Part shown: one piece after another, positions 6,185 through 41,310 of the stretch
Layout of the letters: the number at the start of each line of letters is the position of its first letter
Numbering within the stretch: the first letter of the stretch is position 1
Source: a virus
Virus record (IMG/VR): IMGVR_UViG_3300007351_000587
DNA length: 64,000 bases
Strand: one strand, 5' to 3'
The notes under the pieces: generated by a model
What the model was told of the DNA's origin: nothing
Database searches by the model: none
The model's input: only the letters and a program-made list of their open reading frames with translations
Position numbers and translations under genes: made by a program

Positions 6185-6556
6185 ATGAGTGAAGAGTATG
6201 AAGATCTTGGCGAGCTTGTGCAGCAAGCTTTTGATAAGTATTTATTGGAACGTCTTCCGGGATTGATGGAAAAACACATGCCGCTTGTGGACAATCTAAT
6301 TGCTCAACGTATTAATGGTGGCTATACGCCAGAACTCAACAAAGAATATTTTAATCGTATTCAAAGTATTGTTGAAACTACAGTTGGTAATTATTTGCGA
6401 GTTGGTGGGGGAAGGGATATAGTTGATTCGACAGTTTTGAAATATCTTGATAAGAAACTTGAAGAGCATATAGAGAGTCAGGTTAAATGGCGTGTTAGTA
6501 GATTCATGGAAAGAATTCAAAAGAAGTTTGAGGAAGAAACCAAAGGAGTATCTTAA
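6185..6556 (+). CDS. Hypothetical protein
   Basis: AGGAG SD; ORF track. Confidence 0.65.
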   Translation: MSEEYEDLGELVQQAFDKYLLERLPGLMEKHMPLVDNLIAQRINGGYTPELNKEYFNRIQSIVETTVGNYLRVGGGRDIVDSTVLKYLDKKLEEHIESQVKWRVSRFMERIQKKFEEETKGVS

Positions 6557-6558
6557 TT

Positions 6559-7917
6559 ATGGATAATTTATTGCTGATGACCGACTCTTACAAAGTGTCT
6601 CATTGGAAACAGTATCCGCCAGGGACGGAAACAGTTTACTCTAATTTTGAGTCTCGTGGTGGTAAATGGAATGATATTGTATTTTTTGGATTGCAATATC
6701 TGTTAGAGAAGTATTTAGAATCATGGAGAGTGACCCAACCTAATATTCTAGAAGCTGCTGATCTTCTTAAGAACCATATTGGACATTTTAATTCAGAGGG
6801 TTGGTATCATATACTCGACAAACATAATGGTCATCTTCCAGTAAGTATTAAAGCTGTACCAGAAGGAACTGTAGTTCCTGTTCATAATGTATTGATGACC
6901 ATTGAAAACACTGATCCTAAATGTTACTGGTTAACCAATTATTTAGAAACACTTCTTGTACAGACTTGGTATCCATGCACTGTAGCAACTCAGTCTAGAG
7001 AAATGAAGAAGATCCTTTTAGATTATTTAAACATAACAGGCACTCCAGCTGATATTGACTTCAAGTTGCATGATTTTGGATTTAGGGGAGTTTCTTCTGT
7101 AGAGTCTGCTGGAATTGGTGGAGCAGCGCATTTAGTTAATTTCAAAGGAACTGATACATTAGCTGGTATTGTGTTAGCTGAAAAGTACTATGCTGCTAAT
7201 ATGCCTGGATTTAGTATTCCAGCAGCTGAGCATTCTACTATTACTTCTTGGGGCAGAGATAAAGAAGTTGATGCATTTAGAAATATGCTGGATCAATACC
7301 CTAAAGGTTTAGTTGCGGTTGTAAGCGACTCTTATAACATCTATAACGCTTGTAGGAACTTGTGGGGAATAGAATTAAAGGACAAGGTCATTTCCCGAGA
7401 TGGAACTGTGGTAGTACGTCCTGACAGTGGAGATCCAATTACTACAGTTATCCACGTTTTGGATGCGTTAGGGGAGAATTTTGGAACTGTTAAGAACAAA
7501 AAGGGATATAAAGTGTTACCATCACAGTTGAGAATTATTCAAGGTGATGGTATAGATATTGTGATGATGCAAAGAATCCTTGATAATATGTATATGCGTG
7601 GTTATTCTGCTGATAATATTGCGTTTGGATCTGGTGGTGGATTACTTCAGAAGTTGGATAGGGATACTTGTAAGTTTGCATTTAAATGTTCTTCAGTAAC
7701 TGTAAATGGTGAAGAAAGAGATGTTTGGAAGGATCCTATTACTGATTCTGGAAAGAAATCTAAGCGTGGCAAATTGAAATTAATCAAAACAGAAGATGGT
7801 TTTAAGACTGTTAGGAACACTGAACAAGGCGATGATAACTTAGTTGAAGTATTTAGAGATGGTAAGATTTTAGTTCGACATACATTTGATGAAATTCGTG
7901 AAAGAGCTAAGATTTAA
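6559..7917 (+). CDS. nadV: Nicotinamide phosphoribosyltransferase family protein (NAMPT/NadV or its phage paralog Namat)
   Basis: TDSYKVSH, LHDFGFRG, PAAEHS, VVSDSY, VRPDSGDP, IIQGDG, FGSGGGLLQK motifs. Confidence 0.92.
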   Translation: MDNLLLMTDSYKVSHWKQYPPGTETVYSNFESRGGKWNDIVFFGLQYLLEKYLESWRVTQPNILEAADLLKNHIGHFNSEGWYHILDKHNGHLPVSIKAVPEGTVVPVHNVLMTIENTDPKCYWLTNYLETLLVQTWYPCTVATQSREMKKILLDYLNITGTPADIDFKLHDFGFRGVSSVESAGIGGAAHLVNFKGTDTLAGIVLAEKYYAANMPGFSIPAAEHSTITSWGRDKEVDAFRNMLDQYPKGLVAVVSDSYNIYNACRNLWGIELKDKVISRDGTVVVRPDSGDPITTVIHVLDALGENFGTVKNKKGYKVLPSQLRIIQGDGIDIVMMQRILDNMYMRGYSADNIAFGSGGGLLQKLDRDTCKFAFKCSSVTVNGEERDVWKDPITDSGKKSKRGKLKLIKTEDGFKTVRNTEQGDDNLVEVFRDGKILVRHTFDEIRERAKI

Positions 7918-11295: not shown

Positions 11296-12285
11296 ATGGG
11301 TACAACTAGATGGTCGGATGCTCATTATACGGATCGTATTTCGGTAAGAGCAGCAACTAATACTCCTACGTTTGCCTATGATAGTGCTGTTAAAACAGCA
11401 GCTCTGTCTGGTAAGGTTGAGGATGTTCATAAGAGTCTTAACATCAAAGATGTTAAGATGCGTGAGAGTCGGGATTCTAAGGATCACCCAACTTCAACTG
11501 CAGTAGCTGTATTGTTTGATGTAACTGGTTCTATGTCCACTGTTCCAGCTATTCTTCAGAAGAATCTTCCTAAGTTGATGGGACTGTTGATTCGTAAGGG
11601 ATATGTGGAACATCCACAAATTATGATTGGCGCCATTGGAGATGCTACTTGCGATAGATATCCAATTCAGATTGGTCAGTTTGAGTCCGGTATAGAGATG
11701 GAAGACAATCTTACTAATATTATCCTTGAAGGCGGTGGTGGTGGACAGAAGACAGAATCTTATGAACTAGCTATGTATTTTATGGCTAAACATACCAGCT
11801 TGGATTGTTTCGAGAAGAGAAACAAGAAGGGCTATTTGTTTATTGTAGGCGATGAGATGGCCTACAATAAGATTGATCGTAAGTTGGTGAAGCAGTATAT
11901 TGGTGATGATTTGGAAGCTAATCTTTCCACTAAGAATTTGGTGGAAGAATTGAAGAAGATGTATGAAGTTTATTACATTCTTCCAAAGCAGACTGCTCAC
12001 TATAATGACACGGATGTTGAGAGCTTTTGGAAGGGTTTATTGGGTCAGAATTTCCTGAAGTTGGATGATCCGGCTGGTATTAGTGAATTGATTGCTACTA
12101 CAGTTGGATTGGTTGAAGGGAATACTGATATTGAAAGCGTCAAGGAAGATTTGAAGGAAGTTGGAACTAACACTATTACTGCTGATGCAGTGTCTAGAGC
12201 GTTGGTAGAGCTTCCTAACACTGGTAAGAAGTTACCTGCTAAGGTTAAGTCCTCTAGTAAGAAATCTGGTGTTGCAAAAGTTTGA
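11296..12285 (+). CDS. vWA-domain protein
   Basis: LFDVTGSMS MIDAS motif; GGGGGQKTESYELA; FIVGDE. Confidence 0.82.
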   Translation: MGTTRWSDAHYTDRISVRAATNTPTFAYDSAVKTAALSGKVEDVHKSLNIKDVKMRESRDSKDHPTSTAVAVLFDVTGSMSTVPAILQKNLPKLMGLLIRKGYVEHPQIMIGAIGDATCDRYPIQIGQFESGIEMEDNLTNIILEGGGGGQKTESYELAMYFMAKHTSLDCFEKRNKKGYLFIVGDEMAYNKIDRKLVKQYIGDDLEANLSTKNLVEELKKMYEVYYILPKQTAHYNDTDVESFWKGLLGQNFLKLDDPAGISELIATTVGLVEGNTDIESVKEDLKEVGTNTITADAVSRALVELPNTGKKLPAKVKSSSKKSGVAKV

Positions 12286-12286
12286 T

Positions 12287-12605
12287 CCACTAATGGACCG
12301 GGTGGTGATCGGCTAAGTCATACGGTGTATCTGTTAGCTACATTTTATATGTACAAATAAAATGGCAACACCGATTTGTAATGTTGAATATTAACATCCA
12401 AGTTGGGTAACCAACAACAATCCAGTGAAAGACTGGGTGGTAACAAGCTGGGGTAATGGCGGAAGAGCGCCACTGGCAACCTGGGGAAAGAGATTCTTTC
12501 AGAACCATACTGAAAACCCAACCATCCGTAACGATATAATGTATGGGATTGCGTTACTATAGCGACTCTATTGCGGTGATGGAAAAGAATCCTTTGGATG
12601 TTAAT
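12287..12605 (+). ncRNA. Unassigned structured RNA candidate (~320 nt)
   Basis: 12-bp helix 12390-12401/12594-12605, several hairpins and a potential pseudoknot; only long intergenic gap in the region; strand inferred from neighbours. Confidence 0.55.
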
Positions 12606-12607
12606 TT

Positions 12608-12680
12608 GGACCACTGGCATGTCTGGGATTGCATCCGCCTGTTAAGCGGAATTAGCTGGGTCCGATTCCCAGGTGGTCCT
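12608..12680 (+). tRNA. tRNA-Asn(GTT)
   Basis: GGACCAC/GTGGTCC acceptor; TCCGC-CTGTTAA-GCGGA; T-arm CTGGG-TCCGATT-CCCAG; no CCA. Confidence 0.85.
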
Positions 12681-12685
12681 TTTAT

Positions 12686-13036
12686 ATGATTCTAATAACA
12701 ACCGATGAATCTGGCCAGATGGAGCAAGTTAATTCTAGAATAACAAGGCTCTTGTATTTGGTGGTTACTCAGGTTCAAATCCTGAGCAAATACCGTCGGT
12801 TGTTATTGGGTACAATGTCGGAGGATGTGATGCGAAGATTCAGCCAAGGTTGGCGTAAGTTTTATTGTGAAGATTGTAAATTTGTGTTTGAAGAAGCGAC
12901 GAGGGATTATCAAACTCCCTCGTTGTCTCTTTGTCCTAAGTGTTCAGAAGAAGTGTTTCCAATTAGTGGACGAGAAGATTTAACTCTTCCTATTGATAGA
13001 TTTGGAAACTTGAAAGGAACTTTTCCCAATGAATAG
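12686..13036 (+). CDS. Zn-ribbon (FmdB-like) protein; real start possibly 12815
   Basis: FYCEDC...CPKCS. Confidence 0.5.
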   Translation: MILITTDESGQMEQVNSRITRLLYLVVTQVQILSKYRRLLLGTMSEDVMRRFSQGWRKFYCEDCKFVFEEATRDYQTPSLSLCPKCSEEVFPISGREDLTLPIDRFGNLKGTFPNE

Positions 13037-13500: not shown

Positions 13501-14574
13501 TTGAATGACAGTATGATTGTAACTGAGGATACTCCAAAAGAATTAATTGCAACATGCCCTAAGTGCAAAAACGTTGAGGTTCGTAGAAAGAAGAAAACAG
13601 GGAGAATTCCTTATTGTTTTGATTGTTTTAAGAAAACTAAACATTGTGATAAGAATGGAAATAGAACACCAAACAAAGCAATACCTTTTGAATCTCTGTG
13701 CCAATATTGCAACAGTAAGTTTTTATATTCTAAAAAGAGAAATAAACATGGAACTTTTGTTTGTGAAAATTGTATAGGGCTTCACAAGGAGAACTTATAT
13801 CAAAGAAAGAAATCTCATATAATACAAAACTACAGAGAAAATGTGGATTTGGAGAAAAGAAAGAGATTATCTAGAGAGTTACCAAAAGTTGGACTTTCTA
13901 TAGAATGGTACGATTTGTTGGAAAAGAAATGTGGAATTTGTGGCACGTGCGATTTTGCTAACAATTGGTGTTTAGATCATGATCATAATTGTTGTCCATA
14001 TGGTGAATACTGTAGTAAATGTGTCAGAGGCATTCTTTGTGAGAGATGTAATGTAGGATTAGGAGGGTTTAAGGAAAATACAGAAAGTCTATTATCGGCC
14101 ATTGGATGGATTATGCATCAGAAAGATTCTCCGCAAGGATTAGGAATTACTTGTTTATATTGTGAAAATGCATATAAACCTCAAGATAAATATAAATGGT
14201 CTCATAAAATTTGTGTGGATTGTAAATCTAAATATCCCAAGAGGGGTTGTAGAAAACAATTGAGAGACGAGTGGAAAAACAATCCAAATGTTAGAAACAG
14301 AAAAAGGTTAATTTCAAAACTCAATAAAATTGGGGTAAGTGTTGAATGGTATGAGAAATATTCACGAGCATGTGGTATTTGTGGGTGTACAGATCAATTG
14401 TCAATAGACCATAAACATGGTTGTGAGTTTTGTAATTATTATTGTTATTTGTGCATAAGAGGCTTGTTATGTAGAAATTGTAATTTTGGACTAGGATGTT
14501 TTAAAGACAACGTTAAAACACTAGAAGCAGCTATCAAATGGTTGCAAAGTAAAGGATGTAATAGAAATGACTAA
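13501..14574 (+). CDS. Endonuclease VII-like (His-Me finger) homing endonuclease with two tandem nuclease-like repeats
   Basis: CGICG...LDHDH...RGILCERCNVGLG and CGICG...IDHKH...RGLLCRNCNFGLG. Confidence 0.82.
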   Translation: MNDSMIVTEDTPKELIATCPKCKNVEVRRKKKTGRIPYCFDCFKKTKHCDKNGNRTPNKAIPFESLCQYCNSKFLYSKKRNKHGTFVCENCIGLHKENLYQRKKSHIIQNYRENVDLEKRKRLSRELPKVGLSIEWYDLLEKKCGICGTCDFANNWCLDHDHNCCPYGEYCSKCVRGILCERCNVGLGGFKENTESLLSAIGWIMHQKDSPQGLGITCLYCENAYKPQDKYKWSHKICVDCKSKYPKRGCRKQLRDEWKNNPNVRNRKRLISKLNKIGVSVEWYEKYSRACGICGCTDQLSIDHKHGCEFCNYYCYLCIRGLLCRNCNFGLGCFKDNVKTLEAAIKWLQSKGCNRND

Positions 14575-28778: not shown

Positions 28779-29108
28779 ATGGGCAATTATTATACGGGTT
28801 GGACCAGTTTTATGCCACGGCCTGGTACCGTGGATAAAAAGGATTGTCCTGTGTGTGGGGTGGGGATGAAGGTAAAAAGAAACTGTAACGGACCTACATC
28901 TTCTATTGGTGCTCAATTTGGACAAAAAACTCTCCATGATTGGTTTTATTGTGAAGATTCTGATTCAAATTGGCATATACAAGCAATGAAATTGATGCAA
29001 GAGGCTGAAAAAACTCCCAGTATGGATTTACAAAAGATTTATGAGAAGGAGATAGCAAGGATTCTTAAAAATAAGAAAGCGACTAAGAAGGTATCTAAAC
29101 ACTTTTAA
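28779..29108 (+). CDS. Hypothetical protein (Zn-ribbon-like)
   Basis: CPVCG; ORF track. Confidence 0.6.
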   Translation: MGNYYTGWTSFMPRPGTVDKKDCPVCGVGMKVKRNCNGPTSSIGAQFGQKTLHDWFYCEDSDSNWHIQAMKLMQEAEKTPSMDLQKIYEKEIARILKNKKATKKVSKHF

Positions 29109-29121
29109 CAAGGAGTTAGTA

Positions 29122-29433
29122 ATGGCAAGGGAATTGACTGAGCAAGAGTGTCGTGATTTGTTTTTGGAGAAGGTGCGTTCTTATGTTGAATATTGGGAAA
29201 ACGAATCACGTACTCCGGACTTGCGTGGTAAGTTGGAAGGTCTTGCTTTTTCCATGATGGCCATTATAGATGGTTGTGCAGATGGACTGCCAGGATTCTC
29301 ACTAACTCCTTGTCCTCATCCCCAAGATAAGGAATTCCATCAAGAACACAATGAAAATTGGTGGCCAGAAAGCGATTGCGATATCGGTGGCACCTTACAT
29401 GAAGAAATCTTTTCAGAAAAGGTAATGTCATGA
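29122..29433 (+). CDS. Hypothetical protein
   Basis: AAGGAG SD; ORF track. Confidence 0.65.
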   Translation: MARELTEQECRDLFLEKVRSYVEYWENESRTPDLRGKLEGLAFSMMAIIDGCADGLPGFSLTPCPHPQDKEFHQEHNENWWPESDCDIGGTLHEEIFSEKVMS

Positions 29434-39775: not shown

Positions 39776-40480
39776 ATGGCGGCTACTAACAAGAAAGTTA
39801 CTGGTATTAACACTTACGAAACTGAGCGTCTTGCCGGTGGATATGGTCCAAAGGCTGCAAGACAGCCTGAAGAACAGCAGCTTCGTAGATTGGTAATGGC
39901 TTGTTTACTTTGGGAAGATATTGCGTATTTGGATGGTGAGAAGGTCGTAGACAGCATTCGCAGTTTGATACATAAGTTGCCAGCTAGTGTGGTATCTAGT
40001 ATTGCAGTTGAAGCTCGTTTCGAGCAGAAATTACGTCATGTTCCCTTGCTGTTGGCTCGGGAACTTGCTCGCCATAAGGATACTTCTTACACTGCTCATA
40101 CTTTGGCTAAGGTAATCCATCGTCCTGATGAATTGTCTGAGTTCTTGTCTTTGTACTGGAAGGACAATAAGGACAAGGATGGTAAGCCAAAGAAGACTTT
40201 GAGCGCACAGGTAAAGAAGGGATTGGCTATTGCATTCAATAAGTTTAATCAGTACCAGTTGTCCAAGTGGGACAAGGATAGCAAGGAAATTAAGCTGCGG
40301 GATGTTATGTTTCTTAGCCATCCAAAGCCAAACCAGGATCAAGTCACTTTGTGGAAGCAGTTGGCAGAGAACAAGTTACCACCAGCTGACACCTGGGAAG
40401 TGATTCTCTCTGGAGCAAAAGAAAATGGTTTGAGCAAGACCCAAGCTTGGGAGAAAATAATTGATATGTGGGTAGATTAA
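39776..40480 (+). CDS. Ro60/Rsr TROVE-domain protein, N-terminal half
   Basis: LRRLVMACLLWED, LRHVPLLLARELA, RPDELSEFL, QVKKGLAIAFNKFNQYQLSKW, LRDVMFLSHPKP, DTWE; AAGGAGG SD. Confidence 0.88.
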   Translation: MAATNKKVTGINTYETERLAGGYGPKAARQPEEQQLRRLVMACLLWEDIAYLDGEKVVDSIRSLIHKLPASVVSSIAVEARFEQKLRHVPLLLARELARHKDTSYTAHTLAKVIHRPDELSEFLSLYWKDNKDKDGKPKKTLSAQVKKGLAIAFNKFNQYQLSKWDKDSKEIKLRDVMFLSHPKPNQDQVTLWKQLAENKLPPADTWEVILSGAKENGLSKTQAWEKIIDMWVD

Positions 40481-41310
40481 TGAACAGAAAAGAATTGCCA
40501 ATTGCTGAAATAGTTTCCTTATACTTACAAGGTATTTCTATAATGCAACTAGCAGAGAAGTACAATGTTTGGACAGGGACGTTAAAGAATAGGCTAGTAG
40601 AAGCCGGAGTTATATTGAGATCTCATAAAGAATCCCTTCAGCAATTATCAGCTAGAAAGTTAATGTCAGATTCTGCAATTGGTAGAGCGTCTTGGAACAA
40701 GGGTCTAACTAAATATACTCATAAAAGTATTGCTTCTGCTGCGAACAAACTGAGAGTTTCTAATATTGGCCATTTTGTAAGCGATGAAACTAAAGAGAAG
40801 CATAGAATTGCTGCAATTAAAAGAGGTAGACGATTTCCATACTATGCTAATTGTGTAGAATGTGGGAGGAATAAAAAAGAAAATCGTTGTAAACTTTGTA
40901 GAAAATGTACATCTAAAAGGGCATTAAGGTTTTGTTCAATTTTAAGAAAGACCAAGCCTGAAATAAAAGTAGAAAAACTGCTTGGTTATTTGTTTGGGCA
41001 GTATTCTCCGTATGAGTATACTGGATCCAGAAGCTTCTGGATTGATTTTTTGAATGACAAGAGGAAAAACCCAGATTTTACAAGTTTTGAGTTGAATAAA
41101 GTTATTGAAGTGTTTGGTAGATATTGGCATAAAGATGAAGATCCGAATGATTTAATAAAACAATATAAAGATGTTGGATGGGATTGTTTAGTTCTTTGGG
41201 AAGATGAAGTGAATGCTGATTCAATCTATAATTTTACATTTCCTTGGGAATATTTAGCTGAAATTGAAAAGTTTAGAAAAGAAGAATTTTATGGGGAGGA
41301 AGTAGCATGA
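40480..41310 (+). CDS. Vsr/DUF559-like homing endonuclease inserted in ro60
   Basis: N-terminal HTH; KTKPE...NPDF...VIEVFGRYWH...LVLWEDE; TAATG and ATGA couplings at both ends. Confidence 0.8.
   Translation: MNRKELPIAEIVSLYLQGISIMQLAEKYNVWTGTLKNRLVEAGVILRSHKESLQQLSARKLMSDSAIGRASWNKGLTKYTHKSIASAANKLRVSNIGHFVSDETKEKHRIAAIKRGRRFPYYANCVECGRNKKENRCKLCRKCTSKRALRFCSILRKTKPEIKVEKLLGYLFGQYSPYEYTGSRSFWIDFLNDKRKNPDFTSFELNKVIEVFGRYWHKDEDPNDLIKQYKDVGWDCLVLWEDEVNADSIYNFTFPWEYLAEIEKFRKEEFYGEEVA

Follow-up and report, generated by a model that had tools for sequence, protein, structure and literature searches.

The tRNA cluster of phage T4 contains stable non-tRNA RNAs of ~120-140 nt (species 1 and 2, rnaC/rnaD), which were detected experimentally. 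Like the element proposed here, they are located among phage tRNA genes, co-transcribed, freed by the tRNA-processing machinery and of unknown function; the element has no sequence relationship to them, is ~218 nt long and is predicted only. Bacterial and phage Y RNAs with Ro60 (YrlA, RF02553; YrlB) share with the element a long 5’/3’ closing stem whose far end carries a functional module. However, the element is twice the length of a Y RNA, ro60 is not adjacent to it, and it carries neither the stem motif of the Y-like RNAs of the same phage (GUGGUGUAGA...UUCGCUUUGUUCCC) nor a T-arm mimic. ROOL (RF03087) and GOLLD (RF01998) are likewise multi-branched phage or prophage RNAs of unknown function that are often found beside tRNA genes, but they are 2.5 to 4 times larger, have deep alignments supported by covariation, and neither model matches the element. 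Theta (HDV-like) ribozymes of gut phages have cleavage sites no more than 5 nt to either side of a tRNA 3’ end (PMC10879173). They too are structured phage RNAs flush against a tRNA end and tied to tRNA maturation (PMC10879173), whereas the present element precedes a tRNA, at whose 5’ end RNase P cuts, and matches no HDV-like model.

The window, a stretch of 64,000 nt, is part of an 85.7-kb contig with 36% GC that was binned into a 1.4-Mb small-genome MAG. The gene content identifies the contig as a large phage, its marker genes including NAMPT, ribonucleotide reductase, methyltransferases, an RNA-ligase domain and a purA-like gene; searches for related phages with a 2182-aa protein and with ORF 40468-41310 returned distant domain matches only. 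Every ORF of at least 250 aa and each of the ten tRNA genes of the window is on the + strand, and the Y-like RNAs of this phage are interleaved with its tRNA genes. The stretch under study, 12287-12605, lies between the stop codon of a vWA gene, a member of phrog_2971 with relatives in mycobacteriophages of the cluster-C type and in many jumbo phages, and tRNA-Asn(GUU) (Table 1). No terminator-like site was found on the + strand between 11800 and 13600, and neither a terminator nor a convincing promoter was found between the vWA stop codon and tRNA-Asn. The vWA gene, the RNA candidate, tRNA-Asn, the tRNA-like module M2 and a zinc-ribbon gene are not separated by any terminator.

Table 1. Features of the vWA to tRNA-Asn region, with positions in the window; P, pair probability from the partition function
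Feature	Position	Strand	Remarks
vWA gene, 329-aa protein	11296-12285	+	phrog_2971
5’ spacer (region A)	12287-12389	+	AT-rich; possible hairpins CAUUUUAU/AUAAAAUG and CGGUGU/ACACCG
Closing helix P1, 5’ arm ATTAACATCCAA	12390-12401	+	perfect 12-nt inverted repeat I11; P 0.93-0.94
Hairpin H1, GUUGG-GUAA-CCAAC	12402-12415	+	GNRA tetraloop; P 0.98
Hairpin H2, AUCCAGU-GAAAG-ACUGGGU	12420-12438	+	7 bp including one G-U; P 0.97
Hairpin H3	12448-12485	+	core UGGCG-GAAGAG-CGCCA at 12457-12472, P 0.97; flanks P 0.58-0.60
Inner long-range helix, 5’ strand AAG(A)GAUUCU	12487-12497	+	pairs with 12586-12594, P 0.68-0.84; bulged A12491
Small hairpin, UCAG-AACCAUA-CUGA	12499-12513	+	P 0.83
Distal sub-domain, CCAUC...GAUGG around GUAACG/CGUUAC	12525-12582	+	ill-defined; rival pairings all P<=0.57
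Inner long-range helix, 3’ strand AGAAUC-CUU	12586-12594	+	partner of 12488-12497
Closing helix P1, 3’ arm TTGGATGTTAAT	12594-12605	+	inverted repeat I11; P 0.93-0.94
UU spacer, P1 to tRNA +1	12606-12607	+	helix-TT-tRNA layout
tRNA-Asn(GUU)	12608-12680	+	ARAGORN; Rfam tRNA 44.9 bits
tRNA-like module M2	12690-12811	+	closing stem 16-17 bp; z -6.26
Endonuclease_7 (homing endonuclease)	13501-14574		near the element; homing-endonuclease genes close to the locus

The stretch is non-coding. It contains no + strand ORF of at least 60 aa, and a 91-aa ORF on the - strand, compared with 1.84 billion representatives, gave two weak local matches to long proteins only, which we judged spurious. The domain at 12388-12607 forms a local GC maximum, with 45.5% compared to 30-40% in its flanks. 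Eleven ORF-free gaps of at least 120 nt were found on the + strand; the seven with a GC content of at least 0.40 coincide with tRNA genes or with Y-like/tRNA-mimic RNAs, and the AT-rich ones look like promoter spacers.

The first-pass annotation of the sequence had described a ~320-nt structured RNA, and all of its motifs were found by inspection at their coordinates. When folding was compared with shuffled sequences, the whole 319 nt gave a z-score of -1.74, and the 5’ ~100-107 nt folded no better than shuffles (z +0.36). The hairpins proposed in this upstream part, although present as motifs, and the proposed pseudoknot therefore have no statistical support, and the unit was trimmed to ~12388-12607: only the 3’ ~216 nt is coherent. 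The + strand of this domain gave z -3.86 and its - strand -4.26; the domain was modelled as a five-way junction with three hairpins carrying A/G-rich loops. Its robust helices have pair probabilities of 0.83-0.98. The 12-bp long-range helix of the annotation (12390/12594) has perfectly complementary arms, and three of its hairpins (GTTGG-GTAA-CCAAC, CCAGT-GAAAG-ACTGG at 12422-12436, and TGGCG-GAAGAG-CGCCA) were recovered with probabilities of 0.97-0.98. A fourth, GAAAGA-GAT-TCTTTC, exists in the sequence, but the ensemble favours a long-range helix between 12488-12497 and 12586-12594 in its place, which is predicted to stack under P1. The nested pairs CCATC/GATGG and GTAACG/CGTTAC are also present as motifs, but the fold around them is ill-defined. 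An alternative pairing is visible in the sequence for H1, in which GUUGGGU can form 7 bp with ACCCAAC at 12517-12523.

Most of the folding z-score of the domain comes from the closing helix, since the interior alone gave -1.63; the three-hairpin part gave -2.69 and the 3’ half -1.94. Across 117 non-overlapping background windows of 220 nt the mean z was -0.61 (S.D. 1.15), with one coding window at -4.4, and the window holds about seven perfect 12-15-nt inverted repeats within 300 nt. A coding control framed by such a repeat, located at a gene start (29106-29315), reached z -4.84 with an interior of -2.29. Because these controls match the z-score of the domain, folding energy does not separate the element from background. 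The background window with the lowest z (11661-11880) is inside the vWA gene and includes a hairpin at 11840-11870 with 14-nt arms (TTATTGTAGGCGAT/ATGGCCTACAATAA). In the coding control, the 13-nt perfect inverted repeat (29108-29120/29301-29313) joins the Shine-Dalgarno region ACAAGGAGTTAGT, just before ATG 29122, to a site 180 nt inside the gene; it may be a long-range structure occluding translation, or chance.

The equal z-scores of coding controls also bear on a different reading, in which a recombination hotspot has taken up the stretch as a selectively neutral insertion. It could then be a decayed gene, debris left by shuffling of tRNA cassettes or by homing endonucleases, or a MITE-like element bounded by terminal inverted repeats of 12 bp. 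Consistent with this, the robust helices are pure Watson-Crick and equal on both strands, as inverted repeats at the DNA level would be. However, no protein remnant was detected, and the GC enrichment and A-rich unpaired positions are unlike the AT-rich spacers of this phage. We consider a neutral insertion unlikely.

The strand of a putative RNA was addressed by base composition and pairing. Unpaired bases on the + strand are 45% A versus 20% U. Structured RNAs usually show such a bias towards A at unpaired positions, and in the modelled fold it would fit the + orientation that all genes share. Seven G-U pairs form on each strand, so the strand is not fixed by G-U pairs. An antisense sRNA of ~130 nt could be read from the - strand, starting from a promoter-like site at 12585-12556 and ending at CCAGU-CUUUC-ACUGG followed by AUUGUUGUUG (12436-12412). 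Besides these promoter-like and terminator-like matches, it would account for the slightly better folding of the - strand, on which the H3 flanks pair better and the H3 region forms two 7-bp helices (P 0.96-0.98). Both consensus matches, however, occur at chance frequency (7 versus 6.0 expected for the promoter, 1 versus 1.0 for the terminator), the terminator-like hairpin has a 5-bp stem and a poor U-run, the loops of such an RNA would be rich in pyrimidines, and genes and tRNAs in the window are all on the + strand. An antisense sRNA is therefore very unlikely.

We next asked whether the element belongs to a known RNA family. Of the 4227 models in Rfam 15, searched at gathering thresholds, only tRNAs passed; at E<=10, the 801-nt and 226-nt slices on both strands gave only noise (snoRNA and miRNA models at 12-18 bits). 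The set includes tmRNA, RNase P (bacterial A and B, archaeal and type T), SRP, 6S, group I and II introns, T-box, YrlA, ROOL, GOLLD, raiA, HEARO and self-cleaving ribozymes, and ARAGORN found no tmRNA in the window. The annotation had been unable to match the stretch to tmRNA, RNase P, SRP or group I cores and had named a strong hit to a known Rfam family as a result that would refute it; no family matched. Other candidates were considered and dropped. Group I intron, T-box and SRP readings did not hold. A CsrB-type sponge was rejected because six GGA motifs were counted against ~5.7 expected. A Y RNA or YrlA type has no RF02553 match, and the Y-like stem motif of this phage is missing from 12287-12607.

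Two parts of the fold resemble RNase P RNA by eye. The segment GGGGAAAG-A-GAUUC / GAAUC-CUUU is similar to helix P4 with its bulged nucleotide in E. coli M1 RNA, and UGGCG-GAAGAG-CGCCA to GUAAGAGCGC, a hairpin in the specificity domain of bacterial RNase P RNA. Together with the tRNA-rich context, this likeness is what would favour a much reduced RNA that resembles RNase P or binds the tRNA elbow. On the other hand, no bacterial A/B, archaeal or type T model matched at E<=10, the 226-nt slice included, two extra hairpins separate the P3-like and P4-like parts, and the hairpin resembling the S domain precedes P4. Such an RNA is highly improbable. A bacterial RNase P RNA was rejected as well, since the order of elements is wrong, with three hairpins before the P4-like helix, and RF00010 does not match. 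Over the whole assembly, RF00010 matched contig C24 only, at 35 bits (gathering score 100); this 509-nt match (G000 contig C24:12828-13336, - strand) is the sole RNase P RNA match of the bin and is very divergent and insertion-rich.

The vWA locus was then compared across relatives. In the nearest vWA homologues (67% identity; L003/L004), the vWA gene is followed by a ~120-nt tRNA-like module and then tRNA-Asn, and the module of L004 has the same helix-TT-tRNA geometry as the element. In the jumbo phage L112, whose vWA protein is 47% identical, the order is vWA, an odd tRNA, tRNA-Asn and purA. Other vWA relatives have gaps of 50-70 nt and no RNA; L195 was uninformative, its sequence stopping 56 nt past the vWA gene. 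The vWA-purA site carries different inserts in different phages. Because the element is missing from the closest vWA relatives, the 216-nt domain is a lineage-specific insertion at a hotspot, and because most relatives of the vWA module lack it, it is dispensable for the neighboring genes. The 5’ 100 nt can be aligned loosely with M2 and with the tRNA-like module of L004; weakly, this suggests that they may be what has decayed from the tRNA-like module that relatives carry here. The tRNA-Asn itself is replaced at this locus: the tRNA of the window, beginning GGACCACUGGCAUGU, is unrelated to that beginning GACUCAGUAGCUCAG in L004 (2034-2106) and L112 (4050-4122).

Absence from every diverged relative of the locus, a vWA-purA site with varying inserts and nearby homing-endonuclease genes all speak for a neutral insertion. 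On the other side, no second copy of the element was found in the 1.4-Mb assembly, 50 jumbo-phage records and ~210 related genomes, and no target-site duplication is visible at the ends of the arms. A MITE-like element in particular was rejected: it has the 12-bp inverted arms, but no end duplication and no second copy in the assembly or the relatives searched.

The tRNA-like module M2, 14 nt downstream of tRNA-Asn, contains a T-arm-like hairpin, CUCAGG-UUCAAAU-CCUGAG, flanked by acceptor-like GUAUUUG/CAAAUAC, and it also holds the D-loop-like CUGGCCAGAUGG; neither ARAGORN nor Rfam called it. M2 is weakly homologous (nhmmer E 0.013-0.043) to the module that precedes tRNA-Asn in L003/L004, and its 5’ arm, AATAACAACCGA (repeat I12), is identical at 9 of 12 positions to the 5’ arm of the element, ATTAACATCCAA. 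The element is built on the plan of its neighbors: a long closing stem with a variable head, flush with a tRNA. A 116-aa ORF (12686-13036) overlaps M2. The zinc-ribbon gene downstream probably starts at ATG 12830, behind GGAGGA (12820), which would make its product 68 aa long; residues 59-89 of the 116-aa form carry the Pfam zinc-ribbon match, and a search of 5.8 billion proteins returned no relatives of this neighbor other than itself.

Several searches for relatives of the element were then performed. In INPHARED, neither blastn of the RNA nor megablast of the surrounding 7 kb gave a match, a 544-nt BLAST query found nothing in 60 relatives of the bin, and nhmmer against the whole assembly and all retrieved loci found only the element itself. 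BLAST against 40 IMG/VR jumbo-phage records with a vWA gene gave matches of 14-23 nt only, which we read as chance. A covariance model built from the single sequence and its centroid structure (R1) found only the element itself in its own assembly, 50 jumbo-phage records and 150 same-class genomes. Exact and degenerate pattern scans gave no true match in viral contigs, where two matches lay in a GC-rich, apparently protein-coding stretch and were CM-negative. A 20-mer pattern gave 26 matches in metagenome contigs, all CM-negative and mostly from human-gut contigs, and scans of genome contigs found nothing or one chance match without a hairpin.

None of the sequencing runs listed for the sequence is an RNA run; DNA runs hold only small shares of it. 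In a drinking-water metagenome (run X2), a 159-nt contig matches 12468-12608 with 3 differences and then continues past the junction into a different canonical tRNA start, G-ACACUG-UA-GCUC-AAUGGC; the tRNA at this junction is thus different again in X2. In run X4, from a hot-spring metagenome, a contig covers 12209-12359 with 4 differences. Because the element is joined to a different tRNA in X2, it behaves as a module with its limit at the tRNA processing site, and these contigs show that it recurs nearly unchanged with its 3’ boundary at that site. The annotation had called the stretch a new phage ncRNA class; since only these near-identical fragments were found and no diverged homologue, the element is a single locus and not yet a class.

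We tentatively propose that ~12388-12607 on the + strand encodes a stable, tRNA-punctuated phage ncRNA of ~216-220 nt that belongs to no known family and would be a further member of the small RNAs that this phage intersperses with its tRNAs. The observed non-coding status, GC peak, robust helices, GNRA loop and A-rich unpaired bases on the + strand, lack of a terminator, junction geometry and modularity argue for an RNA gene, and the observed lack of a diverged homologue, the non-discriminating folding energy, the equal folding of both strands, the ill-defined distal sub-domain and the absence from most vWA-module relatives argue against it. Transcription, processing, stability and any trans-acting role are inferred. 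In the proposed path, the RNA would be transcribed by read-through of the J-kinase/vWA operon, with no terminator in between. Host RNase P would then cut at G12608, maturing tRNA-Asn and leaving the RNA with the 3’ end ...GUUAAU-UU; the position of the stretch against tRNA-Asn would allow RNase P to set its 3’ end, as the annotation had suggested. This end would lie directly behind the 11-12-bp closing helix, stacked on the second long-range helix (~20 bp in all), which should block 3’ exonucleases, and the 5’ end would result either from a cut at the base of the helix or from one made farther 5’. The functional surface would be the five-way junction with its three hairpins bearing A/G-rich loops.

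The same position would also suit a cis-acting 3’-end structure, either a cap that blocks exonucleases on the J-kinase/vWA mRNA after the RNase P cut or a structured leader/spacer of the tRNA. Its place directly between the vWA stop and the tRNA, an interval that lacks both a terminator and a convincing promoter, and a closing helix at exactly the 3’ end that RNase P would make, are in keeping with this. However, one hairpin would suffice for a cap, whereas the five-way junction here takes up 216 nt; in relatives that have this vWA gene the gap is 50-70 nt and holds no such structure; and the element was also found joined to another tRNA (X2). A cis-acting cap or leader is unlikely. The probability left over by these readings goes to plain chance. 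For a stable RNA released next to tRNA-Asn, it is only its company (the Y-like RNAs, tRNA mimics and the RNA-ligase domain) that suggests a protein-binding or decoy RNA. It is rather unlikely that the element founds a new family among phage RNAs freed through tRNA punctuation, with a five-way junction that binds a phage or host protein, or tRNA, and with a part in RNA repair or counter-defence beside the tRNA mimics and Y RNAs of the phage. A GGGUGGU segment is complementary to part, and CCACUGGCA identical to part, of the 5’ acceptor/D region of tRNA-Asn.

In sum, the unclassified RNA of the annotation is plausible in a phage that interleaves small RNAs with tRNAs, whereas the new class is unproven; at present it is a single-locus candidate for listing, not evidence for a new class. 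If real, it would be a further indication that the tRNA regions of large phages are packed with structured RNAs that have escaped annotation and are released through host tRNA processing, a single contig would carry Y-like RNAs, tRNA mimics and the present element, and such gaps would merit systematic RNA-seq and covariance-model mining. In L109, a related jumbo-phage contig, two adjacent tRNAs with a CUA anticodon (amber suppressors, labelled ‘Pyl’ by ARAGORN) are located at 6373-6571, near its vWA gene.
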